A DNA stretch of 12,043 nucleotides from an uncultured archaeon (GTDB lineage: Archaea > Asgardarchaeota > Lokiarchaeia > Sigyniarchaeales > SOKP01): assembly GCA_964508365.1 (NCBI GenBank), contig CAZDTP010000088.1, forward strand, positions 1 through 12,043, written 5' to 3'. The notes under the pieces are model-generated. The model was not told the origin of the DNA and did not search any database. It worked only from the letters and a program-made list of their open reading frames with translations. The translations under genes and the position numbers were made by a program. Positions 1-11,960 of the stretch are shown piece by piece (position 1 is the stretch's first letter; every line of letters starts with the position of its first letter).

Positions 1-394
1 TGTAAACAGGTGCTCCAGGGGTTGCCGGGTTGGAAACATTAATAATTGCCAAGCCAGATAAACCATCCGCTACGTACGCGAAATCTCCGCTCACGAAAAC
101 ACCCCATGCATACCCGGTTGTGTCTTCGTAGGTATACGGCCCAGGATTTGCTGGGTTGGCAATATAGATAATCCCCAACCCCGAATCAAAATCTGCTACA
201 TAGGCGTAATCTCCTCTCACGTAAACATCCATTGCCTCTCCCATCGTACTTTCGTAGGCGGGCGTTCCCGGGTTTGTCGGGTTGGAAACATCGATGACCG
301 CCAATCCCGAATAGCGATCTGCAACGTAGGCGTAATTCCCGCTCACGTAAACGCCATGTGCCTCTCCGGTCGTGTTTTCATAGATGGGCGTTCC
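1..394 (-). repeat. Coding tandem repeat, 126-bp/42-aa unit, 3 full copies plus a partial fourth
   Basis: Units at 394..269, 268..143, 142..17 and 16..1 align without gaps (shared YE.T.G.A..V.V.G..AYVAD..SGL..I...NP..PG). Confidence 0.88.
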
Positions 395-529
395 CATGTA
401 TATAGGATCGAGAATACTGCTAGCCGTCAACCTCGCTTGGGTAGGATTCTTCTCTTTACTTGGAATTAGGAAAATCATTGAAATTAGTAGAGTAATCAGC
501 ACGATATTTATCATTTTTGATCTTAGCAT
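1..529 (-). CDS. Secreted or membrane-anchored LVIVD-repeat (beta-propeller) protein, 5' part only; runs off the left edge
   Basis: Manual translation from ATG at 529: MLRSKMINIVLITLLISMIFLIPSKEK... (basic N-terminus plus hydrophobic stretch), then 42-aa repeats such as GTPIYENTTGEAHGVYVSGNYAYVADRYSGLAVIDVSNPTNP, matching the LVIVD pattern (V.V.G.YAYVAD...GL.IIDVSNP..P). No stop in 176 codons. Absent from the ORF track, presumably because the stop lies outside the window. Confidence 0.88.
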   Translation of the reverse strand, partial: MLRSKMINIVLITLLISMIFLIPSKEKNPTQARLTASSILDPIYMGTPIYENTTGEAHGVYVSGNYAYVADRYSGLAVIDVSNPTNPGTPAYESTMGEAMDVYVRGDYAYVADFDSGLGIIYIANPANPGPYTYEDTTGYAWGVFVSGDFAYVADGLSGLAIINVSNPATPGAPVY

Positions 530-617
530 TGATTCACACAACTCTCTTTATTTTTTTTCAAATGAATCTCACCAAAATTTTTGATTAAAAGTTATTAATT
601 AATTAGATCGTTTGTAA

Positions 618-647
618 TAAAAAGTCATAAGGACTAAAATTCTACAA
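618..647 (-). promoter_or_regulatory. Conserved 30-bp upstream element with TATA-like end, copy S1 (upstream of LVIVD gene)
   Basis: TTGTAGAATTTTAGTCCTTATGACTTTTTA; ungapped match to S2, S3, S4; ends 89 bp before the LVIVD ATG. Confidence 0.55.
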
Positions 648-690: not shown

Positions 691-714
691 GGGAGGATTT
701 CGCCCAAATCTCCC
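691..714. other. GC-rich bulged hairpin and short direct repeat in AT-rich intergenic DNA
   Basis: gggaggattt-cgccc-aaatctccc (9-bp stem, one bulged G); CCCAAATCT is tandemly repeated at 703..720. Confidence 0.35.
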
Positions 715-762: not shown

Positions 763-792
763 TATAAAATCACTAGGACTAAATTTATACAA
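763..792 (-). promoter_or_regulatory. Conserved 30-bp upstream element with TATA-like end, copy S2
   Basis: TTGTATAAATTTAGTCCTAGTGATTTTATA; same orientation as S1 and 145 bp upstream of it. Confidence 0.55.
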
Positions 793-867: not shown

Positions 868-2187
868 CTATTGCTTCTTTCTTTCGTTATTTTCGTCTAG
901 ATATTTCATTTCTTCATCTGAGATTTTTCCAATCTCATCTTTAAACTCCTCATAAAGCGTGGAGAATTCAGAAATAAACGAGAGGGGTGATTTTATCAAC
1001 TCAGTTTTAATAGCTTCATATTCTTCTTCGTCTGGAAATATTTTTCGAAGTTTGTTTTCTAGTTCTAACGGAATTTTTATGTATTTTCCTGTTAGAAAGA
1101 GCGGTTGTTTTTTGTTTTTAATGACCTTATAAGGGAAGTTTGAAAAATACTTTTCAATCAATTCGAATGCTGCATCGTATTGAGACATATCCTTAACCGA
1201 ATTTTTTAATTCTCGTTCAAATTTCATCTCAAAATCGTCAGTGAACTTAATTACAGAATCTCTTAACAATTTTGAAGTTTTTGAGGCGACTAAACCTACA
1301 GTTATATTTTTAGATTCTTTTAAGATCAAAATACCCTTTTCTAGATTTATATCTAAAAGACCACCAATATGCATTACTTCTTCGCTCATAAGCTGTACTG
1401 CATTTAAAAAGCCAGTGAAAATTGCTTCACTTATATTTGTATCAGACCAATCATGATCATACAAGGGTTGACCATCCCTATCTTTAACAACAATTCTATA
1501 GATTGTAAAGGGTAATATGTATAATAATTTTGGTTCTCTCGCAAGTGTAAATATAAAAATAAGAGAGCCTATCATAGTCATAAAACCAGATACTAATATT
1601 AGGAGTGTTTCAAAAAGATATAAAACATAAAATATAAGCCCTAAAGGACAAATGAATAAAATCCCTATAAAGAAAATATTAGCTTCCTTTTTTATTAAAA
1701 AAGGAGCATTCCTCCAAGTTTTTATACCCCAATAAAATAAATATAATATAGAGATACTAGTAAACAAAATTCCCATAATATTAAAGGATCCTGCCCAATC
1801 TACTCTCAGGTATCCCGCTTCCAAATCTATTCTAGTAGCACCAGGTTGCATACCGATGTAGATAAATAATGTACTTAGCCCACATATGACTAAAAGGCCT
1901 TTAGAATAAAATGTTTCTTTAATTGTATAGGTCACACCAATCGTTATACATATGGTCATGGGTATAAGAATTAATCCATCAAAAATAGAAATAAATTCAT
2001 TAATTAAAAGAATTGCTAAACCGTCAAATAAGATATATATCCAGAAGAAAATCCATCCTAGTCTAATAAAGAATAGTGATTTAATCTTCTTAGATTTTGG
2101 AGAATAATAGGAGATACTTAAAACAATTAAACCTAGAGCTACGATTATAAAATCAACAATAACCTCCATATTCCAATTTAAAACCAT
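868..2187 (-). CDS. 7-TM membrane protein fused to a C-terminal longin-like domain, copy 1 (439 aa)
   Basis: Seven hydrophobic segments in residues ~7-215 with basic inside loops. The soluble part (YRIVVKDRDGQPLY...IFTGFLNAVQLMSEEV...GILILKESKNITVGLVAS...FTDDFEMKF...FELIEKYF) has the beta-beta-alpha-beta-beta-beta-alpha-alpha pattern of longin folds. About 52% identical to 5711..7015 by manual count (227/434). Confidence 0.8.
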   Translation of the reverse strand: MVLNWNMEVIVDFIIVALGLIVLSISYYSPKSKKIKSLFFIRLGWIFFWIYILFDGLAILLINEFISIFDGLILIPMTICITIGVTYTIKETFYSKGLLVICGLSTLFIYIGMQPGATRIDLEAGYLRVDWAGSFNIMGILFTSISILYLFYWGIKTWRNAPFLIKKEANIFFIGILFICPLGLIFYVLYLFETLLILVSGFMTMIGSLIFIFTLAREPKLLYILPFTIYRIVVKDRDGQPLYDHDWSDTNISEAIFTGFLNAVQLMSEEVMHIGGLLDINLEKGILILKESKNITVGLVASKTSKLLRDSVIKFTDDFEMKFERELKNSVKDMSQYDAAFELIEKYFSNFPYKVIKNKKQPLFLTGKYIKIPLELENKLRKIFPDEEEYEAIKTELIKSPLSFISEFSTLYEEFKDEIGKISDEEMKYLDENNERKKQ

Positions 2188-2234
2188 TCTCTTTCTTTCT
2201 CTCTAATTATTAATTATGTTTTTTAAATTGAAGA

Positions 2235-3251
2235 TTATGTTGCATCGAGAATTTTAATAATATCTTCCTTTAAATCATTGTTTATGCACATTTCTCTGTC
2301 CAGATCTTGGTTTAAAGTAATTATACCATAATCTAATAAATTTTTTATGCGATAATATACATCTTCTCTCTTTTCATCAATTTTTTTATATATCTCTGAT
2401 TTGATGAAAGTATCATTCTCAATAAGCAAATGTATTATTTTGTTATTTATTCGATCTCTTAAGATGAAAAGGATTCTCCCAACATCCTCATCAAGTTCAA
2501 ATGGAAGAAGAACGGAGTAATGTCCAACTTTTATCTTTTTAACGTAATTAAATTTCAGAAGCATCTCCAAATGCCATACTAATTGTCCAGAACTCCCCGC
2601 TTCTTCTGATAAAGCTTTTTTTCTTATATTTGAAAAGTGTACTCCAGGGTTCATTCTTATATATCTGTAAATCCTATTTCTAACATGATTTGAAAGAACT
2701 GTTTCCCTTGAGAATTTTGAACCCTCAATCAATATTTTTTTATTTATTAAAAATTGTATTATGAATAAAAGACCATTTCTAGGTATTTTTAATCTTTTTT
2801 TTGCCGCGTTGTATAAAGTTTCCATATTCAATACTTTATTTTCACTTAAAAGTTCTTCAGCTATCTCTATAACGCTCTTTACAGTTGGATGTTCTAATCC
2901 GATTCCTTTAGTTAAAATCTGAAGTTTCATATTAGAGATAATTAATTGTATAGATAAATCTAAATGGGATATCTGATATACAATAATATATAAATCTTCT
3001 TTCAACTCGTTGAAAAGTTTTAAATAATCTGTTAATTTCCCTTTTGAAGCTTTTATAAATTTAAGTTTTATTAATTTTCTAATAATGGTGTTCTTTATAT
3101 TTCTATTAGAGAATTTATAAAGATTACTTTTTAGTAAAAATAAGTATAACTTATCTTTAAACAGAAATGATCTGGAATCTGGAGCATTAGAATTAGTCTT
3201 TAAATCATTTCTTAAATGATTCAACATAATAAGGAGGCTTCCACACATCAA
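2235..3251 (-). CDS. Multi-winged-helix transcriptional regulator (COG3398-like double wHTH plus N-terminal helical domains), copy 1
   Basis: R.RIY.YI..NPGVHFS.I...GSSGQLVWHLEMLLKFNYV followed by a second ArsR-like wHTH. About 55% identical to 4719..5669 from the shared Met (127/231, manual count). Start uncertain: 3251, 3227, or the conserved Met at 2930. Confidence 0.8.
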   Translation of the reverse strand: MMCGSLLIMLNHLRNDLKTNSNAPDSRSFLFKDKLYLFLLKSNLYKFSNRNIKNTIIRKLIKLKFIKASKGKLTDYLKLFNELKEDLYIIVYQISHLDLSIQLIISNMKLQILTKGIGLEHPTVKSVIEIAEELLSENKVLNMETLYNAAKKRLKIPRNGLLFIIQFLINKKILIEGSKFSRETVLSNHVRNRIYRYIRMNPGVHFSNIRKKALSEEAGSSGQLVWHLEMLLKFNYVKKIKVGHYSVLLPFELDEDVGRILFILRDRINNKIIHLLIENDTFIKSEIYKKIDEKREDVYYRIKNLLDYGIITLNQDLDREMCINNDLKEDIIKILDAT

Positions 3252-3285
3252 TACAAATTCTATGAAACAATAATTGAATCAATCC

Positions 3286-3315
3286 TATAAAATCATATAG
3301 ACCAAAATTCTACAA
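3286..3315 (-). promoter_or_regulatory. Conserved 30-bp upstream element with TATA-like end, copy S3 (upstream of regulator copy 1)
   Basis: TTGTAGAATTTTGGTCTATATGATTTTATA; ends 35 bp before the ATG at 3251. Confidence 0.6.
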
Positions 3316-3517
3316 AAAAAAAATCAATCTACCTTTTTTATTAGACAAAAGTAAAATCCTATAGTATCATGAATATGAGGATAAAACCGTTTTGAGAATT
3401 TCAAATCATCTAATAAGTTAGTTCCAAAAACTTCAGTTAAATCTTTCACTCCATAATCATATTGAAATATTTTTAATATTAAGTTATATTCTTAAGGTTT
3501 ATAAGAGTATCTAAATA

Positions 3518-3537
3518 TTAGGACAACATAGTCCAAA
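3518..3537. promoter_or_regulatory. Imperfect palindrome TTAGGAC-N6-GTCCAAA upstream of the methyltransferase
   Basis: The half-site resembles the RGTCC core of S1-S4. It lies just downstream of a TATA-like TTTATAAG at 3498..3505. Confidence 0.3.
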
Positions 3538-3633
3538 AGGAAATAATGTATATTCAATTAGAGTTGATTTTTAATTTCTTTAAATACTAATTCTATCCTC
3601 AATCTTGCTAAACAATATGGTTATCTTCCCTAT

Positions 3634-4539
3634 ATGATTGAAAGATATTTTCAATTCTTAGGAGAAGATCAAACAATCCAACTATTAAAGGCAAATGAAA
3701 TTCCATTAACACCTTCAATAAGAGTTAATTTGCTAAAAATAGACGCGCAAACCTTAGAAAATAGACTAAACGGCAAAGGGTTTAAGTTAGAACCAATTGA
3801 TTGGATACATAATGGATTCAAAATTAGGAACTCTCCTTTAAATTTAGGATCAACTCACGAATATCTTCAAGGATTTTATTATATACAAGGTGTTGCTCCA
3901 ATGTTGCCTGCATTCATTCTTGACCCAAATCCAAGTGATGTTGTGATTGATATGTGCGCAGCTCCAGGTGGAAAAGCAACACACTTGGCACAAATCATGA
4001 ACAACAAGGGAAGTTTAATATTAATAGAAAGAAATAGAAATAGGATACCCGCTTTAGATTTTAATCTTCGAAGAATGGGTGTTTCCAATTCGATTGTTAT
4101 AAATGAGGATGCTGTGAATCTGTCAAAAATGAATTTGAAGGCAGATAAGATTTTATTAGACGCACCATGCACGGGAGAGGGATTAATTAGGCAAGATCCT
4201 AGTAGAAAAAGGAGTAAAACTATGAAAGATATCAATAAATTAAGCACGATTCAAAGAAAATTACTAAAAACTGGATTAAATTCCTTAAATCCCGGAGGAA
4301 AACTATTATATAGTACCTGTTCGATTGCACCAGAAGAAAACGAATTAGTTATAGATGATGTGCTAAAAGATAATTCAGACTTCGCTATTGTTAAGCTACC
4401 AAGAAAATACGGCATAGATGGAATAATTGAAGTTTATAATAAAATGCTTAGGGAAGATCTCAAATATTCTCAGAGACTTTATCCTCATATTCACAATACA
4501 ATTGGATTTTTCGTATGTTTAATTCAGCGGAAAAAATGA
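3634..4539 (+). CDS. nop2: NOL1/NOP2/Sun (RsmB/NSUN) family RNA m5C methyltransferase
   Basis: SAM-binding DMCAAPGGK, motif IV LLDAPCTGEG and motif VI YSTCSI (both catalytic Cys present), and C-terminal RLYPH.H.T.GFF. Homology probably extends upstream of 3634 (see findings). The symbol is family-level. Confidence 0.93.
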   Translation: MIERYFQFLGEDQTIQLLKANEIPLTPSIRVNLLKIDAQTLENRLNGKGFKLEPIDWIHNGFKIRNSPLNLGSTHEYLQGFYYIQGVAPMLPAFILDPNPSDVVIDMCAAPGGKATHLAQIMNNKGSLILIERNRNRIPALDFNLRRMGVSNSIVINEDAVNLSKMNLKADKILLDAPCTGEGLIRQDPSRKRSKTMKDINKLSTIQRKLLKTGLNSLNPGGKLLYSTCSIAPEENELVIDDVLKDNSDFAIVKLPRKYGIDGIIEVYNKMLREDLKYSQRLYPHIHNTIGFFVCLIQRKK

Positions 4540-4551
4540 TATAAAAATAAA

Positions 4552-4560
4552 TTTTTTTTT
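4552..4560 (+). terminator. Oligo-T tract, possible archaeal terminator of the methyltransferase
   Basis: T9 begins 13 nt after the stop; overlaps the 5' end of element S4. Confidence 0.3.
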
Positions 4561-4586
4561 AGAAATTTGGTCCTAATGTGTTTATA
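4557..4586 (+). promoter_or_regulatory. Conserved 30-bp upstream element with TATA-like end, copy S4 (upstream of regulator copy 2)
   Basis: TTTTAGAAATTTGGTCCTAATGTGTTTATA; ends 133 bp before the ATG at 4719. Confidence 0.6.
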
Positions 4587-4718
4587 TATCTCTATTTCTT
4601 AATCAACTTGAATTAATTCTTTTTACGATAGGTAAGAGAATTGGGTGGAATTCTGTGTTTTCTTCAATAAAAGATTTAATCCAAATTTTTCTTTCAACAT
4701 AATGTCATTTAATAAGAA

Positions 4719-5669
4719 ATGATGCTTCAAAGTGAAATAGTTTTTTATTTGTTAAGGTTCTATCTTTGTACTAAAAATAATAAAATTGAAAGAAGAAATA
4801 GTTTTAAAAAGCTAATAAAAGTTGAAATTTGGGGAGCTTCTTTTGGAACTTTTTCAAGATTTATAGAATTGTATTTTGAATTGAAACAGGAATCTAAAGA
4901 TAATGCAGATATTAATGAAAATTTGGTAATCTGGATTAAGATTGATAAAGATTGGGATATTATGAAAGAAAAAATTATTAATCCACCCTTAAATTTAGAA
5001 CATCCGAACGTACAGCGTGTTATCGCCATAGCAGAAGATATGATGAATCAGAGTAAGATTCTCACTATAGAAAGATTGTATAATGTTTCGAAAAAAACTT
5101 TAAAAATCCCCCGATCTGGTCTAATATCAATTATTCATTTTTTAATCAATAATAATGTGTTACTTGAAGGTTCAAAATTTTCAAGGGAAACAGTTCTTAT
5201 GAATCATTTTAGGAAAAACATCTTAGATTATATACGACTAAATTGTTGTCCTCACTTTTCAATTCTAAGAAAAGAGGTTTTATCCGAGCGAGATGGAAAT
5301 CTAGGAAGCTCTGGGCAATTAGTTTGGCATTTAGAGATGTTAATGAAATTTAATTATATAAAAAAAGTAAAAGTAGGAAATTTCACAGTGTTTCTACCCA
5401 TTGAGATGGAAGTTGAGTTAGGAATAATTAATTTTCTATTAAGAGATGAAATAAATAGGAAAATCGTAGAATTATTAACAACACAAATTTCAATTAAAAA
5501 TTCAGAAATTTTTAAATTAATAGATGAAAACCGAGGAAAAGTCAATTACAGACTAAAAAATTTAATTGACTACGATTTAATTTGCCTTAAAGAAGATTCA
5601 AATAAGGAAGTCTATTTAAATCCAGATAAACAAGAGGATGTTATCAATATATTAAATATATTCAAATAA
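4719..5669 (+). CDS. Multi-winged-helix transcriptional regulator (COG3398-like), copy 2
   Basis: Paralog of 2235..3251 with an identical putative recognition-helix segment GSSGQLVWHLEML and EGSKFSRETVL. Alternative start at the conserved Met 4962. Confidence 0.8.
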   Translation: MMLQSEIVFYLLRFYLCTKNNKIERRNSFKKLIKVEIWGASFGTFSRFIELYFELKQESKDNADINENLVIWIKIDKDWDIMKEKIINPPLNLEHPNVQRVIAIAEDMMNQSKILTIERLYNVSKKTLKIPRSGLISIIHFLINNNVLLEGSKFSRETVLMNHFRKNILDYIRLNCCPHFSILRKEVLSERDGNLGSSGQLVWHLEMLMKFNYIKKVKVGNFTVFLPIEMEVELGIINFLLRDEINRKIVELLTTQISIKNSEIFKLIDENRGKVNYRLKNLIDYDLICLKEDSNKEVYLNPDKQEDVINILNIFK

Positions 5670-5710
5670 CGTTTATAAAAAAGTTAATTTAAATTTGTGA
5701 GAACGGAAAA

Positions 5711-7015
5711 ATGGTATTAAATTGGACACCTGAAGTAATCGTTGAAATATTCACGAGTGCAATCATCCTATCTGCTACTGTATTAATGTACATTACACCG
5801 AGAACTAAGAAAATAAAATCTTTATTTTATATTAGATTAGGTCTTTTTTTTATGGGAATGCTCTTTGCATTAGACTTATTGGCAAATCTCTTTTTGAACA
5901 CATTACTTTCCCGGATTTGTGGTCTTATGTTATTTCCTAGTGCAGCGTTATTTGCGATTGGGATTAATTATACAATTAAAGAAACATATAATTCAATTTT
6001 CTTAATTATAGTAGCAGGGTTAGGTGTATTATATTGTTACCTTGCATTTCAACCTGGAGCTATCGGATTTGAATTTGAGGGAGGACATTTAAGTGTAAAT
6101 TGGATTGGATTGTATGAAGCGGTAGGTTCATTTTTTATATTCTTTGTTGGTAGCGCATCGTTTTATTGGGGTTTAAAAACGTGGTTGAATGCTCCATTTT
6201 TGATAAAAAGAGAAGCTCTTATATTTTTTATGGGTACCGTAATAAATGGACCATTAACTCTAATAATATACCTTTTTTACTATTGGAATCCAATTTTTAT
6301 TCTATTTGCTTACGCTACTACAGGTTTAGGAAATTTGATTGTTTGTATAGGAATATTGAAAGAGCCTAAACTCCTTTATATTTTACCATTTACCGTTAAT
6401 AGGATTGTTGTAAGAGATCGAGAAAGAAATCCATTATTCAGTCACGATTGGTCTCGTTCTAGCTTAAATGAATCAATTTTTATAGGATTTCTAAATGCAG
6501 TGCAACTTATGAGCGAAGAAGTTATAAATATGGGGCGGCTATTGGACATTAAATCAGAAGAAGGTATCCTTACATTATATAAATCTGAATTGATCTCAGT
6601 TGGTTTAGTTGCATCTAAATACTCTAAATTATTACGAGAGTGTGTTTTACAATTTACTCAAGATTTTGAGCAAAAATTTGAACGAGAGTTGAAAAAACAG
6701 GTTTGGGATATAGCCCAATATGAGGGTGCATTTGAATTAATTGAGAAATATTTTTCAAACTTTCCGTCTCATGTTATTTCTAGTAGAAACCAACCTCTAC
6801 TTTTATCAAGTAAATATGTGAAACGAGTAGGGGAATTAGATAATAAACTTAGAAAAATGTTCCCTGATGAGAAAGAATATGAAAATATAAGAAATGAGAT
6901 GCAGAAGTCCCCAATTGGCTTAGCATCTGACTTTTTTTCTCTCTACGGCGAGCTAAAAGGCGAAATTGATAAAATCGAAGATAAAAAAGTTGATCAGCTT
7001 GATCTGAAAGACTAA
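5711..7015 (+). CDS. 7-TM membrane protein fused to a C-terminal longin-like domain, copy 2 (434 aa)
   Basis: Colinear ungapped paralog of 868..2187 (shared MVLNW start, EPKLLYILPFT, GFLNAVQLMSEEV, AFELIEKYFSNFP); begins 41 nt after the regulator stop. Confidence 0.8.
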   Translation: MVLNWTPEVIVEIFTSAIILSATVLMYITPRTKKIKSLFYIRLGLFFMGMLFALDLLANLFLNTLLSRICGLMLFPSAALFAIGINYTIKETYNSIFLIIVAGLGVLYCYLAFQPGAIGFEFEGGHLSVNWIGLYEAVGSFFIFFVGSASFYWGLKTWLNAPFLIKREALIFFMGTVINGPLTLIIYLFYYWNPIFILFAYATTGLGNLIVCIGILKEPKLLYILPFTVNRIVVRDRERNPLFSHDWSRSSLNESIFIGFLNAVQLMSEEVINMGRLLDIKSEEGILTLYKSELISVGLVASKYSKLLRECVLQFTQDFEQKFERELKKQVWDIAQYEGAFELIEKYFSNFPSHVISSRNQPLLLSSKYVKRVGELDNKLRKMFPDEKEYENIRNEMQKSPIGLASDFFSLYGELKGEIDKIEDKKVDQLDLKD

Positions 7016-7032
7016 ACTGCATTAATAAACGC

Positions 7033-7614
7033 TTATTGTTTTCTCCTTAGATAATAACCTTTATCAGTTAAAATATTTGCAACTATATCTCCTTGATTGA
7101 GTAATTTATAATTAGTATAATCAATTTCTGAACGAGCAAGAGCTATAAGTTCTCTTGATTCATTTAAGACTAGCAGTATTGCATCTTTTTGTACGGCTGA
7201 TGGAATATTAAAGATCATCCTTTTTAATATCGGATTTCCATATAGAATTGCTTTCTCTCCTTTATTAGATATAATTAAAATATTTTGATCTGGAATTTTA
7301 TTTTCGTTTAAAAAGAATTCTGCTCCTTCCAAGCTTAAATGAAAAATTCCCTTCCTAATAAAACCAAAATAAACACCTGCTGAACACACGATTTCTACTT
7401 TAAGGATTTTTTCCAAAAGATTGCCTTGATCACGGGAAATTAAATAGATTGAAGGAAACTTGCTTTCAACTTCCAACCTATTTGAGGAAATGTATAATCT
7501 ATAGTCGTTTTTCTCTAAATAAGGTAATATTACGAGGGATAATTTTAAAAGTGAGTCTATAATAATTTTTTTTTCAATTTTATTAATAAGCCTAAATTTT
7601 ATTAAATCTCTCAT
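7033..7614 (-). CDS. nip7: NIP7/UPF0113 family ribosome-biogenesis protein with C-terminal PUA domain
   Basis: SAGVYFGFIRKG.FHLSLEG, GEKAILYG, LVLNES.ELIALA and terminal TDKGYYLR match archaeal Nip7-like proteins. Confidence 0.85.
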   Translation of the reverse strand: MRDLIKFRLINKIEKKIIIDSLLKLSLVILPYLEKNDYRLYISSNRLEVESKFPSIYLISRDQGNLLEKILKVEIVCSAGVYFGFIRKGIFHLSLEGAEFFLNENKIPDQNILIISNKGEKAILYGNPILKRMIFNIPSAVQKDAILLVLNESRELIALARSEIDYTNYKLLNQGDIVANILTDKGYYLRRKQ

Positions 7615-7690: not shown

Positions 7691-8407
7691 ATGGGCATTC
7701 GCAAAATCGAGGACGAAATAGATTTAAGAGAAGCCATGAAGAAAAAAGCAGCTGAGTTGAAGCTTATGGACATGGAAGCAAAAGCTGCAACAGAAAACTT
7801 TACAAAAGAAAGGCTTACAGAATTAGCTAAAACCCATGGAGTCATTTTGGCGTTAACTCCTGAATTAAAGAATGAAGTTAAAGCTTTACAAAAAAAGTTT
7901 AACATTCCATCGTCCAAAATAATTACTGAACAGATTACAGAAAACGATGTTTTAAAGAAATTTTCAAAAATAGACCATGAAAATTTGGGAATGCTTGCTT
8001 ACCAAAGAATCTTGATGCAGAAAGAAGAAATAGGAGTAGGGTTAACACCAATTTCTAGAATCTATGGATTAGTAAATACGGGGATCTTAAAAGGGATATT
8101 AGACATTAAAGATTTGTTAAAAGCTTTAAAATTACTCAAGAAAAATCATATTATCGATGATTTGCAAGAATTTGATTCCGGTATCGTAATGGTAAGATTT
8201 TTTCCCGTTCAATACACTACTGATCAAGTGAAAGTTGTAGGAGTTGCTAAAGAAAAGGGTTTTATTTCTCTTGAAGATGTATGTATTGCCCTAAACTGGT
8301 CTCAAGATCGAGCATCAGAGACTTTGAAGTCATTAGAAGACACAGGAGTGGCAAAATTGAGAGAATCTCTCTTAAAGGGAAAGCAATGGTACTTCCCCTC
8401 TTTATAA
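7691..8407 (+). CDS. vps22: ESCRT-II Vps22/Vps36-like (EAP30 domain) protein
   Basis: Aligns by eye with eukaryotic SNF8/Vps22: ERLTELAKTH..TPELK, DLLKALKLLKK, PVQYTTDQVKVVGVAKEKGFISLEDVCIALNWSQDRASETLKSLEDTGVA, WYFPSL. Confidence 0.9.
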   Translation: MGIRKIEDEIDLREAMKKKAAELKLMDMEAKAATENFTKERLTELAKTHGVILALTPELKNEVKALQKKFNIPSSKIITEQITENDVLKKFSKIDHENLGMLAYQRILMQKEEIGVGLTPISRIYGLVNTGILKGILDIKDLLKALKLLKKNHIIDDLQEFDSGIVMVRFFPVQYTTDQVKVVGVAKEKGFISLEDVCIALNWSQDRASETLKSLEDTGVAKLRESLLKGKQWYFPSL

Positions 8408-8412
8408 TTGAG

Positions 8413-9303
8413 TTATTCTATTTTTATTTTAAAAGAAACTTGATCATCATCTAGTCTAATAATCGTCCCCTTCTTATCTTTTTCTAACATTTTAAAAATT
8501 TTAATTATATCATCATTGGGAAGTTTACTAAACGCTCTATTAGATTCTCTAATTTCAAATATTAATATTGGCTCTAATGGAGAAATTTCCATGGCCCAAT
8601 CGTATATTTCTTCTGCCCAATTATCTAAACTCTTCCAATAAACTCTTAATTTCTCTTTACTTTTGGATAACCATTCAGCTTGTTCTTTATTAACTAGTTC
8701 TTCAGCAATTTCTTCTAAGGCTTGTTTTCGGTCTTCAAAATTAGAAAAGGGTTTTTCAGATTCAGTTTGCCGAAGATATAAAATATGAAGTATAGCATAC
8801 CGTGCGTAATCGAAAAGAACTTTAGACCATTCATTTTTCCAAGATTCGTAGTCTTTCAAGTCAGTTTTTCTATTTGGAATTGAATACATAAAGATATATC
8901 TTTTTTCTTCAAGCCACGGGTAATCGTTAAGTAACAATTCATAAGTTGATATTTCTTTAGTAACAGCCTCTCTCTCTTTTATTATTTCTAGCTCAATCTC
9001 TCGAAGTTCATTTTCAATTTGAGCGGCGTTTTGCTCGTAGGCTTTTTGGTCGATTTCTCCTAGTTTTGATGTAAGGATATCTTCAATTTTATTTAACCGT
9101 TCTTCAATTTCTTCACTTGGAAGCCCTTCTTGGATCGAATCTGAAACAATTTTCTCTGAATCAACTTCAATTTCTTTTAATTCCTTTTGTTTCTTTAGTT
9201 CTTTTAATCGAGCTAATTCCTTCCTTAAGCCATCTAATTCTCTTTCAGGTTTTTCTTTTGCCTCCTCAACAGCTTCTTTTGGTTTTTCTTTTTGACGTTC
9301 CAT
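8413..9303 (-). CDS. vps25: ESCRT-II Vps25-like protein with ~120-aa charged coiled-coil N-terminal extension
   Basis: WKNEWSKVLFDYAR and AEELVNKEQAEWLSKSKEKLRVYWKSLDNWAEEIYDWA match the Vps25 tandem winged helices (compare human LEWLDKSKSSFLIMWRRPEEWGKLIYQW). Confidence 0.9.
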   Translation of the reverse strand: MERQKEKPKEAVEEAKEKPERELDGLRKELARLKELKKQKELKEIEVDSEKIVSDSIQEGLPSEEIEERLNKIEDILTSKLGEIDQKAYEQNAAQIENELREIELEIIKEREAVTKEISTYELLLNDYPWLEEKRYIFMYSIPNRKTDLKDYESWKNEWSKVLFDYARYAILHILYLRQTESEKPFSNFEDRKQALEEIAEELVNKEQAEWLSKSKEKLRVYWKSLDNWAEEIYDWAMEISPLEPILIFEIRESNRAFSKLPNDDIIKIFKMLEKDKKGTIIRLDDDQVSFKIKIE

Positions 9304-9324: not shown

Positions 9325-10542
9325 TTAAAATTCTCCGAATTCTTTAGCCCATTGCTCGTATTGACGTAAAGAAGAACCTGTAGTCATAGGTTTTACTTTT
9401 TTTAGAGTTTTAGTAAAGTCTTGTAAGTTAATATCCCTTACAATTACTTCTTTATCGGAATTTTCTAAGAGGCCTCCCATATCTAATTCCCGGATTGGAA
9501 GCATAATAACTTCACGACATACATTAGAGATGTCTCTTCCAGAATATCCATCAGATCTAACTCCTAACTCAATAAAATCTTCCTCGGGTATAGCCATATT
9601 AATTCCTGCGGTGTGAATCTTGAATATTCCAACTCTGGCTGGTAGATCTGGAAGAGGAACATACACTTTTTTTTCAAATCTACTAAGCATGGCAGTATCA
9701 ATATCCCAAGGTCGATTCGTTGCCCCTAAAACTAACAAAGGTTTTTTAGACCCTGATTTAATTCCTTGAATTTCGGCTAATAGTTGAGTTTTTACTCTCC
9801 TTTCTCCACCACCTTCATGACCTTCGCCTCTCTTAGTAGCCACAGAGTCAATTTCATCCATAAATATTAGACTAGGGGCTTTTATTCGAGCAACTTTAAA
9901 AAGAGAACTTATTAACTTTTCACTTTCTCCTAACCATTTGCTTAATAAGTCGGCTGACGAGACACTAAAAAAAGTTGCTTCACATTCTGTTGCTGCTGCC
10001 CTGGCTAGCAATGTTTTTCCACATCCTGGCGGCCCAAATAAAAGAATCCCTGACCATGGCTTTCTTGCTCCTTTGAATAAATTGGGTTTCATAATTGGCA
10101 AAACGATAGCTTCTCTTAAGGCTTGTTTGCTTCCATCTAAACCCGCGATGTCTATCCATTTCACATTAGGCGATTCAGTTAATATAGTTCCCGATATTGA
10201 ATCTATTATTTCTTGTTCCTCAGCAGTGTATTCTCCTTCTACCACAGCTGATTCGCCCTCTTTTGGTTCGCTTGGTTTACTGGATGGCTTTCCCCTTTTA
10301 GCACGAGGACCACTTAAGTGAGTTTTTAGTACGTTAGCACGATCTAAGTATTGTTCAATTTGTTCGTGACACTTTCTAATCATTATAGGATTTTTATTGT
10401 ATTGTACGAATTGTATTAAGATTTCAGCAGCTCGCTGATATTTATTTAGCGCTTGTCTATATTGACCATTTTCATCTAACGCAACTGCGGCTTGCGCTTC
10501 TTGTACAGCATATTGGTATAGTTTGCTATCAACACTACTCAA
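9325..10542 (-). CDS. vps4: Vps4 AAA+ ATPase with N-terminal MIT domain (TTG start)
   Basis: MIT-like helices (AQAAVALDENGQYRQALNKY), Walker A GPPGCGKT, pore loop SKWLGESEK, Walker B IFMDEID, RGEG..ERRVKTQLL, GATNRPWDID, C-terminal YEQWAKEFG. No eukaryotic beta-domain insertion. Sits upstream of and co-oriented with vps25. Confidence 0.93.
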   Translation of the reverse strand: MSSVDSKLYQYAVQEAQAAVALDENGQYRQALNKYQRAAEILIQFVQYNKNPIMIRKCHEQIEQYLDRANVLKTHLSGPRAKRGKPSSKPSEPKEGESAVVEGEYTAEEQEIIDSISGTILTESPNVKWIDIAGLDGSKQALREAIVLPIMKPNLFKGARKPWSGILLFGPPGCGKTLLARAAATECEATFFSVSSADLLSKWLGESEKLISSLFKVARIKAPSLIFMDEIDSVATKRGEGHEGGGERRVKTQLLAEIQGIKSGSKKPLLVLGATNRPWDIDTAMLSRFEKKVYVPLPDLPARVGIFKIHTAGINMAIPEEDFIELGVRSDGYSGRDISNVCREVIMLPIRELDMGGLLENSDKEVIVRDINLQDFTKTLKKVKPMTTGSSLRQYEQWAKEFGEF

Positions 10543-10639: not shown

Positions 10640-11960
10640 ATTTAATTGATAATATCAATCAGTATTATCAGACTCTGGTTTCCTTTAAATAAAGATAATT
10701 ATATTTAACTATTAACTTGAGATTATCTGAAACGATATACTTAAATTCTTCCGAACAAATTTCTAAATTGTGTCATTTAGCTAAGAATTTATTCAATTTA
10801 GCTAATTGGTATGTAAGACAAGATTTTTTTAAATTAAATAATTTCATAAATTACTACGATCTGGATTATGTATTAAAAGATAAACAAGCATATAGAAGAT
10901 TACCTTCTCAGACTTCTCAACAGATTCTAAAACTAGTCAATAGAAATTGGAGATCGTATTTTGGAGCATTAAAAGAATATAGAGCTAATCCTAATAAATT
11001 TAGAAAAAAGCCTAGAATTCCAAGCTATAAAAAGAAGAACGGAGAATATATCGTTGTTTTTTCAAACCAGCAGTGTAGAATTAGGGAGGGGTATCTACAC
11101 TTTCCAAAAAAAGTTAATCTCAAACTAGTGAAAACAAGAATTACTGAAAAACTAAAAGAAGTAAGGATTATTCCATTAGGGATAAAGTATAAAATAGAAA
11201 TAGTTTACGAAAAAGAAAAGCAGGATTTAGGATTAAATAAAAATGCGATGGTATCAATTGATTTAGGACTGAATAACCTTATAACTGCTGTAAATAATAT
11301 TGGGTTAGATCCAATTATTATTAAAGGTAAGATTATAAAATCCATAAATCAATATTACAACAAGCAATTAGCATATTATAGAAGTATCGAAAACAAGAAG
11401 AATAATTTTCAAGACACAAAAAGACTTCAAAAATTACATCTAAAGAGAAACAATAAAATAAACACCATCTTTCATAGAATTTCTAGATGTTTAATTGAGT
11501 ATTGCATCAAAAATAATCTTGGAACTATTATTATTGGATACAATGATGGTTGGAAGCAGAATATCAATTTGGGTAAAAAAAATAACCAGAACTTTGTTCA
11601 GATTCCATTCTTAAGGTTGATTAATCAAGTTAAATATAAATCAGAACTGATTGGAATTACGGTAATAACAGTTAACGAGAACCACACATCTAAGTGTAGT
11701 TTTCTCGATAATGAAGAGATTAGGCATCATAAGAAATATATAGGCAAAAGAATTAGTCGGGGTTTATTTAGAACTTCCAATGGCAGACTTATCAATGCCG
11801 ACATAAATGCAAGTTATAATATCATGAAAAAAGCATTCCCAAACGCCGTTTCGGTTGATAGGATAGAGGCATTCGGACTGATGCCACAAATAATGCAACA
11901 AAATATCGTTGATACTATTATTTGAAATAAAATGAGTATAGTTTTATTCATTTTGATGGT
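10640..11960 (+). mobile_element. IS200/IS605-superfamily TnpB-only (IS1341-like) element; ends approximate
   Basis: tnpB with no tnpA in the 174 bp upstream. Small inverted repeats at 10645..10670 and 11929..11954 could be subterminal hairpins. Exact ends not determined. Confidence 0.6.
10717..11925 (+). CDS. tnpB: TnpB RNA-guided endonuclease, rearranged RuvC-II type (TTG start)
   Basis: N-terminal AKNLFNLANW and LPSQTSQQ; RuvC-I SIDLG (D182); IIIGYN (G274 at the usual Glu position); E321 in VNENHTSKC; RuvC-III NAD (D362); family-typical KKAFPNA tail. Confidence 0.93.
   Translation: MRLSETIYLNSSEQISKLCHLAKNLFNLANWYVRQDFFKLNNFINYYDLDYVLKDKQAYRRLPSQTSQQILKLVNRNWRSYFGALKEYRANPNKFRKKPRIPSYKKKNGEYIVVFSNQQCRIREGYLHFPKKVNLKLVKTRITEKLKEVRIIPLGIKYKIEIVYEKEKQDLGLNKNAMVSIDLGLNNLITAVNNIGLDPIIIKGKIIKSINQYYNKQLAYYRSIENKKNNFQDTKRLQKLHLKRNNKINTIFHRISRCLIEYCIKNNLGTIIIGYNDGWKQNINLGKKNNQNFVQIPFLRLINQVKYKSELIGITVITVNENHTSKCSFLDNEEIRHHKKYIGKRISRGLFRTSNGRLINADINASYNIMKKAFPNAVSVDRIEAFGLMPQIMQQNIVDTII

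Follow-up and report, generated by a model that had tools for sequence, protein, structure and literature searches.

Membrane sensors that act directly on a DNA-binding partner are known from the extracytoplasmic function (ECF) sigma/anti-sigma, RsgI/SigI and BlaR1-BlaI/MecR1-MecI systems, in which the two proteins are encoded by adjacent genes and the cytoplasmic part of the membrane sensor contacts the DNA-binding protein. Systems of the sigma/anti-sigma and BlaR1 types also regulate their own operon and control neighbouring genes, and they do so without a phosphorelay. Here we describe an arrangement that is similar in these respects, found in a 12,043-nucleotide (nt) stretch of DNA from an uncultured archaeon of the Lokiarchaeia; this stretch, referred to below as the window, is the entire contig C88 (CAZDTP010000088.1) of a 4.07-Mb genome, and its proteins are matched best by metagenome-assembled genomes of Promethearchaeota/Lokiarchaeota. 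Two gene pairs, A and B, each made up of a helix-turn-helix (HTH) gene and a gene for a membrane protein with seven transmembrane helices (7TM), a longin-fold domain and a C-terminal tail, flank in opposite orientation a gene for an RsmB/Nop2-type rRNA methyltransferase (nop2). Our analysis suggests that each pair is probably a two-protein, kinase-free membrane-to-gene signalling module of Lokiarchaeia. The pair resembles the known sensor-regulator systems in kind, without any protein family in common with them. The 7TM-longin-tail protein is unrelated to the single-pass anti-sigma factors or the sensor protease, its partner is a triple winged-helix (WH) protein as opposed to a sigma factor or a BlaI dimer, and both the contact between the two proteins and the control of genes are predicted.

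A further comparison is offered by ToxR, CadC and ArnR of Sulfolobus, in which the DNA-binding module is tethered permanently to a membrane sensor. In the family described here the two parts are, unlike in ToxR-type regulators, separate proteins in nearly all genomes. In genome G158, however, a 676-amino-acid (aa) open reading frame (ORF) on contig C223 (L044:2458-4488) fuses the 7TM domain, the longin domain, the tail and three WH domains, with the sensor first and the HTH part last, which is the reverse of the order in ToxR, and with no OmpR-type or HAMP domain. As far as it can be read from its sequence, this natural fusion shows permanent tethering to be compatible with function.

NPRL2-like longin domains fused to two-component signalling domains have been described in Asgard archaea (Liu et al., 10.1101/2020.10.19.343400), and these resemble our system in using longin as a module of prokaryote-style signalling. 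A 625-aa paralogue encoded on contig C63 of the same genome (L014:5124-7001) fits this pattern: behind its 7TM-longin module (31% identity, E 3e-28) it carries a HisKA domain (E 1.5e-20) and a HATPase_c domain (E 1.1e-29), so that the module also provides the input to a sensor kinase of the classical type. Open frames of 627-636 aa, a length similar to that of this kinase fusion, are present at matches in G250, G175 and G240. The window pairs differ from the fusions of Liu et al. in having neither kinase nor receiver; according to Pfam, a HisKA/HATPase_c core and a receiver domain are absent from all four pair proteins, and the output would be a bound winged-helix protein. A first-pass annotation of this DNA, made from the letters alone, had proposed a sensor and transcription factor pair free of kinase domains, which is correct for both window pairs and does not extend to the C63 paralogue. 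We found no paper describing a 7TM-longin and triple-WH pair in the literature on longin domains with 7TM, histidine kinase, archaea or HVO_0163.

The same annotation had reported two copies of an element-regulator-receptor unit in opposite orientation around nop2, and the coordinates and spacers bear this out. Pair A lies on the minus strand, with its HTH ORF at 2235-3251 and its membrane ORF at 868-2187 separated by a 47-nt spacer (2188-2234), and pair B lies on the plus strand, with its HTH ORF at 4719-5669, a 41-nt spacer (5670-5710) and its membrane ORF at 5711-7015. The resident nop2 gene between them (3634-4539, plus strand; Pfam Methyltr_RsmB-F, E 5.8e-55) is outside the system. Membrane protein B has the same 7TM, longin and tail architecture as its paralogue A, and the two align gap-free over 431 aa at 53% identity (E 3e-156); the two HTH proteins share 46% of their residues over 318 aa (E 4e-89), a figure that rises to ~55% across their conserved core. 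At the DNA level the two arms are joined by inverted repeats of 36-170 nt with 72-83% identity. All four ORFs are intact. When each of the four genes is compared with its orthologues, the ratio of nonsynonymous to synonymous substitution rates (dN/dS) lies within 0.21-0.45 (a rough estimate by NG86), consistent with the purifying selection that had been proposed for them.

Searching 399 Asgard genomes with each protein and comparing coordinates, we found an HTH gene adjacent to 91 of the 94 full-length homologues of the membrane protein, although this count overstates the number of independent observations because the genomes are related. The HTH gene is directly upstream on the same strand in 83 of the 94, with a median of 71 nt between the aligned ends. 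The reverse order, with the membrane gene first, occurs in five (the G158 fusion included), and three are second membrane genes that stand in tandem behind a pair. The remaining three lack an HTH neighbour, in at least one case close to a contig end. The pairs span at least nine genera, at identities down to 25-40%, and the genome of the window itself holds a third pair, on contig C91 (L013), with 3 nt between the genes. The earlier proposal had been made to depend on whether the two genes are adjacent elsewhere, and they are. Homologues of ~360 aa that lack the tail also occur across the phylum, often in tandem arrays of two or three, and none among the matches listed has an HTH gene beside it; the five tail-less neighbourhoods inspected (including L069 in G142) are heterogeneous. 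One tail-less array (L071, G244) adjoins a Ras/Rab-like GTPase gene.

The membrane protein was modelled with AlphaFold2 on 66 homologues, which gave a mean predicted local confidence (pLDDT) of 73.5, with most of the transmembrane (TM) part at 80-95. Residues 1-220 of membrane protein A (1528-2187, minus strand) are modelled as seven TM helices (7-28, 36-61, 64-90, 96-112, 133-160, 163-189 and 196-217), with a short beta hairpin between TM4 and TM5. Loops rich in Lys and Arg follow TM1, TM3, TM5 and TM7, and with these basic loops in the cytoplasm the N-terminus would be outside and the C-terminus inside. The short hairpin is the sole outside part of the domain, and conserved polar residues lie within the bundle. 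This arrangement is like that of 7TMR-DISM proteins and class C G-protein-coupled receptors (GPCRs), which also have seven TM helices, an outside N-terminus and a cytoplasmic output module. Unlike those receptors, the membrane protein has no large extracellular domain, no G protein, cyclase or kinase output, and no Pfam or NCBIfam match. The TM bundle superposes on the 7TM hydrolase ACER3 with Z 12.9 and on mGluR and other class C GPCR 7TM domains with Z ~12, values that helical bundles reach by chance, and its Foldseek matches are at E ~5e-3; because unrelated helical bundles reach Z ~12, only a 7TM topology is claimed here. Among the structural clusters of a 2026 preprint (10.64898/2026.10.28.762692) is one from Asgard archaea that is named 'class C GPCR'.

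The cytoplasmic domain that follows (residues ~221-353; 1129-1527, minus strand) matches the beta-beta-alpha-beta-beta-beta-alpha order of longin domains in the model, with DSSP elements at E229-236, E241-246, H254-271, E276-282, E285-291, E295-301 and H306-328, of which the first helix has a pLDDT <50. Using VIA-align, residues 227-353 superpose on Sec22b (1ifq_B) with Z 14.3 and a root-mean-square deviation (rmsd) of 2.8 Å over 124 of 128 aa, and the cytoplasmic domain superposes on VAMP7 (4afi_B) with Z 13.4, on Ykt6 (3bw6) with Z 12.4 and on the AP sigma and COPI zeta subunits with Z 11-12. The label "7TM-longin", which the first-pass annotation had given to the protein, is supported at the fold level by these models. 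The likeness to the eukaryotic domains is one of fold and topology over 120-127 residues (Z 11-14); longin proteins of Asgard archaea have themselves been reported among the eukaryotic signature proteins. Unlike the eukaryotic longin proteins, the pair has no SNARE motif, no evident adaptor or GTPase partner and no Pfam longin match, and its longin domain stands C-terminal to a 7TM domain and is followed by a tail predicted to dock the HTH protein. This helical tail (residues 354-439; 868-1128, minus strand) contains two residues, P401 and F408, that are invariant among homologues. Neither membrane protein matches a Pfam family at E <=0.01 in hmmscan, the longin, sybindin and Roadblock models included, and there is no NCBIfam match to the family, no match of its profile to PDB sequences, and nothing from a features search of the ESM Atlas beyond Promethearchaeota clusters without names. 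For P0005, a membrane protein at 97% identity, an exact look-up gave no record. The family itself comprises 408 database clusters at E <=0.001.

The partner, HTH-A, is modelled with three winged-helix domains across residues 122-337. Its sole Pfam match at or above the cutoff is to HTH_HVO_0163_N, an uncharacterised archaeal domain (31.3 bits against a cutoff of 31, E 2e-7), which HTH-B matches under the cutoff (E 2e-4). The third domain, WH3 together with the helices that flank it (residues 237-338), superposes on CzrA (6cdb_B) with Z 11.8 and rmsd 3.1 over 89 of 95 aa, and on SqrR, BigR, HlyU and SmtB with Z 11-11.8 (superposed span 87-97 aa), and its best matches by Z are DNA-binding ArsR/SmtB and MarR proteins. 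The likeness of WH3 to ArsR/SmtB repressors (Z 11.4-11.8) is accompanied by sequence matches that stay below the cutoffs for ArsR family membership, namely HTH_20 at 19.3 bits against 27 and, in the C91 paralogue, HTH_5 at 18.4 against 22. Unlike in those repressors, WH3 is preceded by two further WH domains, which are predicted to bind the receptor tail. Against PDB sequences the regulator profile finds only archaeal HTH proteins, at E 0.07-0.7.

The conserved three-WH core begins at M108 in HTH-A (ATG at 2930-2928) and at M82 in HTH-B (ATG at 4962). About half of the homologues begin exactly at the equivalent of M108, which is near-invariant, and have no extension before it; in G190 the equivalent of the extension is a separate ORF of 121 aa. 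The extensions, which cover residues 1-107 of HTH-A (2934-3251, minus strand) and the first 81 residues of HTH-B (4719-4961, plus strand), are basic and evolve at a dN/dS of 0.54-0.76, compared to 0.2-0.45 for the core. That of HTH-A (dN/dS 0.54) is poorly constrained, and residues 1-115 of the protein have a pLDDT <55. There is no clear Shine-Dalgarno sequence before either internal ATG. The first 107 residues of the HTH-A ORF and the first 81 of the HTH-B ORF are doubtful, and the true start codon is uncertain.

The earlier annotation had also proposed that the membrane protein is coupled to the winged-helix factor through its cytoplasmic tail. When receptor residues 218-439 and HTH residues 116-338 were modelled together, each with its alignment, the interface score ipSAE had a median of 0.70 (runs of 0.71, 0.70 and 0.61), compared to 0.00 for the best of three controls. 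Of 80 solved complexes 58 attain this mark, as do two of 110 mismatched pairs. The runs have at least 44% of their contacts in common, with a partner pLDDT of at least 79. In the model, tail residues 356-432 sit on HTH residues 128-266, which form winged helices 1 and 2, and the longin core is not part of the interface. The tail covers the conserved SSGQLVWHLEML helix of WH2, with the invariant F408 packing on the invariant W226 of that helix, and the EGSKFS loop (177-180) of the HTH protein contacts residues 399-400. The interface takes in 12 of the 16 conserved tail positions and leaves the ArsR-like WH3 free.

The sequences of the pairs were also compared for covariation. Over 39 distinct pairs, the identity between HTH cores correlates with the identity between tails at a Spearman coefficient of 0.64, compared to 0.56 for the longin domain and 0.34 for the TM domain, and adding the tail to the TM and longin domains raises the R2 for HTH identity from 0.46 to 0.62. 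In the eight comparisons in which the HTH proteins are at least 80% identical and the TM domains less than 50% identical, the tails are still 77-95% identical. Taken together, the complex model, the natural fusion and the covariation support, but do not show, that the tail binds the regulator.

The idea that the factor controls its own operon and the neighbouring LVIVD gene fits the placement of a promoter element, which precedes each of them here and has the corresponding positions in ~27 orthologous loci. In this element a T-run is followed by the 15-nt core GTAGAATTTTGGTCC (at most 3 mismatches; the core element is also written GTAGAAWTTTGGTCC), then by 7-9 nt and a TTTATA-like box, so that the core would lie just upstream of the transcription factor B recognition element (BRE). 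The window holds four copies. One is upstream of HTH-A (3286-3324, core 3299-3313, minus strand; TTTATA) and one upstream of HTH-B (4545-4590, core 4559-4573, plus strand; TTTATATA), the latter conserved in G247 (L061, position 7708). A third lies 77 nt past the stop of membrane gene A (763-801, core 776-790, minus strand; TTTATA), and the fourth stands before the LVIVD gene (618-656, core 631-645, minus strand; TTTTTA box). This gene, a candidate target of pair A at 2-541 on the minus strand, encodes a secreted LVIVD-repeat beta-propeller (Pfam LVIVD, E 1.6e-37) whose N-terminus is a hydrophobic signal or anchor; the window holds its 5' part, and the gene continues past the contig end. The element lies 76 nt upstream of it, and the same position is occupied in G252, G190 and L075. 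Beyond the four window copies, no site with core, T-run and TATA context was found elsewhere in the 4.07-Mb genome.

In the ~27 orthologous loci two positions of the element are conserved, and at each it points the same way as the pair. One lies upstream of the HTH gene. The other, kept in nearly all of the loci, is ~70 nt past the stop of the membrane gene and often has a further copy 145-150 nt behind it. The genes behind the downstream elements encode proteins with a signal peptide or anchor and are otherwise diverse, including the LVIVD propeller (in the window and G252), NosD/beta-helix and Ig-like or Kre9_KNH proteins and several without a known family. A conserved box, GGGAG-N-GGCGAAATCCTCCC (691-714, minus strand), stands 45-52 nt past the TATA of the first element behind the membrane gene. 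It is found at a fixed distance in ~25 loci as GGGAG...GCGAAATCC, also written GGGAG...CCTCCCTTT, with the consensus GGGAG-N7-12-GG(C/T)GAAATCC(TCCC)TTT (examples are L016:2931-3006 and L034:2940-3020). No conserved small ORF was found at the box, and RNAalifold, given 23 sequences, predicts no base pairing. The box could correspond to a second DNA site, to a leader or to a short transcript.

The third pair of the genome provides a comparison. Its 11-kb contig C91 has no copy of the C88 element and holds five copies of ATGCAAAAAAnnnTACCTTA-N8-TATA (L013, positions 142, 930, 2599, 3412 and 8186, plus strand), which precede, among others, genes for SBBP, FG-GAP and LRR surface proteins and a gene for a small membrane protein. 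No close match to this pattern was found on other contigs of the genome, with one weak match at 2 mismatches, and in other genomes the pattern is rare, yet occurs within 2 kb of four HTH homologues. The C91 element includes the reverse complement of the C88 core, and the promoter of the C91 HTH gene has a related site in the C88 orientation and with similar spacing, as judged by eye. The fact that paralogue-specific elements surround paralogue-specific regulators is the pattern expected of a transcription factor and its operators. We infer that the regulator binds the 15-nt element and so would control its own operon and the adjacent surface-protein genes.

In the mechanism that we propose, the 7TM domain would sense a signal in or at the membrane and the longin domain would pass the change on to the tail. 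The tail would hold WH1-2 of the regulator and then continue to hold it, release it or re-orient it, while WH3 would read the 15-nt site. The outputs would be the operon of the pair itself and the adjacent surface-protein genes, here the LVIVD propeller. Release of the regulator would not be obligatory because a covalently fused form exists, and the regulator may act while bound to the membrane or may be freed by cleavage.

One alternative is that the HTH protein is an ordinary local regulator, an autoregulated repressor or activator of an operon whose membrane protein is a transporter, an enzyme or a structural protein, with no signalling contact between the two. A regulator standing beside the gene that it regulates is the commonest cause of conserved pairing of this kind, sensing and its signal are proposals, and the TM domain does resemble a 7TM hydrolase in its superposition on ACER3. 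We consider this explanation unlikely, however, given the natural fusion of both proteins, the interface score of the complex compared to the best control, and a tail that co-varies with its HTH partner while the TM domain is exchanged. Among the matches listed, the HTH neighbour is, moreover, found only at the tail-bearing homologues, and in the C63 paralogue the 7TM-longin module is the N-terminal input of a histidine kinase. A metal site of the PAQR/ceramidase type also finds no counterpart, since no invariant or near-invariant His was found in residues 1-220 among the 66 homologues.

The two pairs of the window differ in origin. The first-pass annotation had described an inverted duplicated operon, and on the duplication it has to be amended: a recent in-situ inverted duplication was rejected given the separate clades with their own orthologues, the divergence between the pairs and the relic of a foreign nop2. 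In a FastTree tree of 120 membrane proteins A and B fall into separate clades (32 rows, support 99, and 38 rows, support 100), with membrane protein B in the 38-row clade beside a nearest relative that is 82% identical, and the synonymous divergence (dS) between A and B is ~2. A and B are, as judged from these comparisons, ancient paralogues. Directly upstream of the pair A element lies a pseudogene stub (3324-3471, minus strand), a relic of the last ~50 codons at the 3' end of a foreign nop2. It is 90.5% identical to the nop2 of G241 at the nucleotide level over 148 nt and 84% identical over 51 aa, compared to only 54% aa identity with the resident nop2, which for its part is 88% identical to the nop2 of G247 and 64% to that of G241.

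The surroundings of pair B recur in other genomes. To its right in the window are a Nip7-like UPF0113/PUA gene (7033-7614, minus strand), a Vps22/36-like EAP30 gene (7691-8407, plus strand), a Vps25 gene (8413-9303, minus strand) and a Vps4 gene (9325-10542, minus strand), which belong to an Asgard cluster of genes of the endosomal sorting complex required for transport (ESCRT) that fills the right half of the window. The order of nop2, element, HTH gene and membrane gene, followed by a PUA gene facing the opposite way and then EAP30, Vps25 and Vps4, is found in 10 genomes of two genera. This slot holds an A-type pair in G241 and G190 and a B-type pair in G247, G232, G184, G246, G240 and G211; in G185 it holds a single HTH gene and then a B-like and an A-like membrane gene, and in G234 a B-type pair is beside the ESCRT genes but upstream of nop2. 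Pair B of the window occupies this conserved slot next to the ESCRT-II and Vps4 genes. The foreign nop2 relic beside pair A indicates that pair A is an inserted piece of an A-type slot from a G241-like lineage. Pair A, its elements and its target gene would accordingly have been inserted upside-down upstream of nop2, beside the resident B-type slot.

The junction between nop2 and HTH-A is not an assembly artefact, as the same divergent junction is shared by four independent metagenome contigs of close relatives (L075-L078) and the intergenic region with the HTH-A element is 98.7% identical between the window and L075 over 382 nt; an assembly chimera was rejected on these grounds for the A side. 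The four contigs lack pair B, with nop2 and the PUA gene directly adjoining. Only some of the lineages thus have pair B.

Several observations weigh against the signalling interpretation. Besides the relatedness of the census genomes, which makes the counts non-independent, every functional step rests on models and comparative genomics. Confidence in the membrane model is moderate in the longin helix and the tail, with a pLDDT <50 at 249-274 and in much of 354-439. The modelled tail covers just the helix with which WH2 would be expected to read DNA, so that WH1-2 may be purely protein-binding modules. Another factor could bind the 15-nt element, or the element could be an unusually extended basal promoter. 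The spacer of pair B contains a TATA-like stretch, TTTATAAA, so that HTH-B and membrane gene B might be transcribed separately. Two further points, the conserved slot beside EAP30, Vps25 and Vps4 and the fact that the only Foldseek matches of the whole HTH model at E <0.001 are ESCRT-II subunits (3cuq_A, 3.2e-4), lead to a different explanation.

In this second alternative the pair is an accessory of trafficking, with the tandem-WH protein as an ESCRT-II-like adaptor that couples the longin membrane protein, a cargo receptor or recruiter, to ESCRT-II and Vps4. The top Foldseek matches of the whole HTH model are VPS22 and VPS36 (E 3e-4 to 3e-3), the longin fold is a hallmark of trafficking, and in the complex model the tail binds WH1-2 as a protein partner would. 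These matches are poor in geometry, however, with a TM-score of 0.2-0.35 and an rmsd of 11.6-14.5 Å (0.20-0.28 and 14.5 Å for 3cuq_A), any tandem-WH chain looks alike in this respect, and RPC34, SarS, MukE and ScpB score similarly. ESCRT-II subunits are not among the 50 best matches of the HTH model by Z, of which the best are DNA-binding ArsR/MarR proteins. The EAP30 and ESCRT-II Pfam models miss the HTH proteins, yet match the true subunits encoded in the window (ORFs 7691-8407 and 8413-9303). Many pairs, including the third pair of the same genome, are away from ESCRT genes, a paralogue carries a histidine kinase, and the regulon marked by the promoter elements would have no place in such a scheme. 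We regard an ESCRT role as quite improbable.

Eukaryotic longin domains mostly act together with small GTPases. A route in which the longin domain is a platform (a guanine nucleotide exchange factor or GTPase-activating protein) for an Arf-, Rab- or Rag-like GTPase encoded elsewhere, with the GTPase as the real output and the HTH protein as secondary, could draw on this habit, on the tail-less homologue beside a Ras/Rab-like gene and on the many small GTPases encoded in Asgard genomes (10.1101/2020.10.19.343400), yet it is the least credible of the alternatives, as it is the HTH gene that is conserved as partner, the contact is predicted to run through the tail and not the longin core, and no GTPase gene is present within the window or around those tail-bearing pairs whose neighbourhoods were inspected, with no systematic test across genomes.

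Returning to the membrane-to-gene signalling module, comparison of the window with L075 suggests how its parts may evolve. At the nucleotide level nop2, the intergenic region and HTH-A are 93-100% identical between the two. Identity drops at the start of the membrane gene to 42-62% in the 7TM region, recovers to 65-78% in the longin domain and reaches 86-97% in the tail and the two downstream elements, before falling below 50% in the target gene, which is the LVIVD gene in the window and codes for a Kre9_KNH/Ig protein in L075 (the membrane gene comparison covers window 2187-1143 against L075:11062-12100, and the target gene window 1-545). At the protein level, membrane protein A and its L075 counterpart are 36% identical in the TM domain, 72% in the longin domain and 87% in the tail, and G252 repeats the pattern (HTH 84%, tail 83%, TM 37%). 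The sensor domain and the target gene have thus been replaced, like cassettes, within a background that is otherwise nearly identical. The regulator, the docking tail and the promoters are retained. This exchange points to strain-level diversification of the cell surface.

A bolder version of this proposal, which we put forward tentatively and consider possible but doubtful, is that the pair is a receptor of Lokiarchaeia's own design, in which a 7TM domain of GPCR topology acts through a longin domain on a directly bound transcription factor and needs neither kinase nor G protein nor second messenger, and in which close relatives swap the sensor jointly with the surface-protein gene under its control, in the manner of cassettes. 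If this were true, the cassette design would suit the recognition of partners, surfaces or viruses, with a strain-specific pairing of sensor and displayed protein.

When longin domains and 7TM receptors of Asgard archaea are mentioned, it is usually as eukaryote-like features, and they are interpreted in terms of vesicle trafficking. Here the longin domain would be part of a prokaryote-style signalling module, the likely output of which is the transcription of surface-protein genes. If confirmed, this would for the first time assign a function to a family of hundreds of proteins, and would reveal the role that longin domains had before there was eukaryotic trafficking. It would also provide a simple and testable receptor-to-promoter circuit, made up of a tail, a three-WH factor and a 15-nt operator, in organisms about whose regulation almost nothing is understood.

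The remaining features of the window are minor. No RNA genes were found in it by Rfam at the gathering thresholds or by ARAGORN. A TnpB gene (10717-11925, plus strand; OrfB_IS605 and Cas12f1-like TNB) stands at the end of the ESCRT cluster. At the other end of the contig, the LVIVD fragment (1-541) has a GC content of 0.49, compared to ~0.28 in the rest of the contig, and is built of 126-nt tandem repeats, of which three copies are 68-72% identical.

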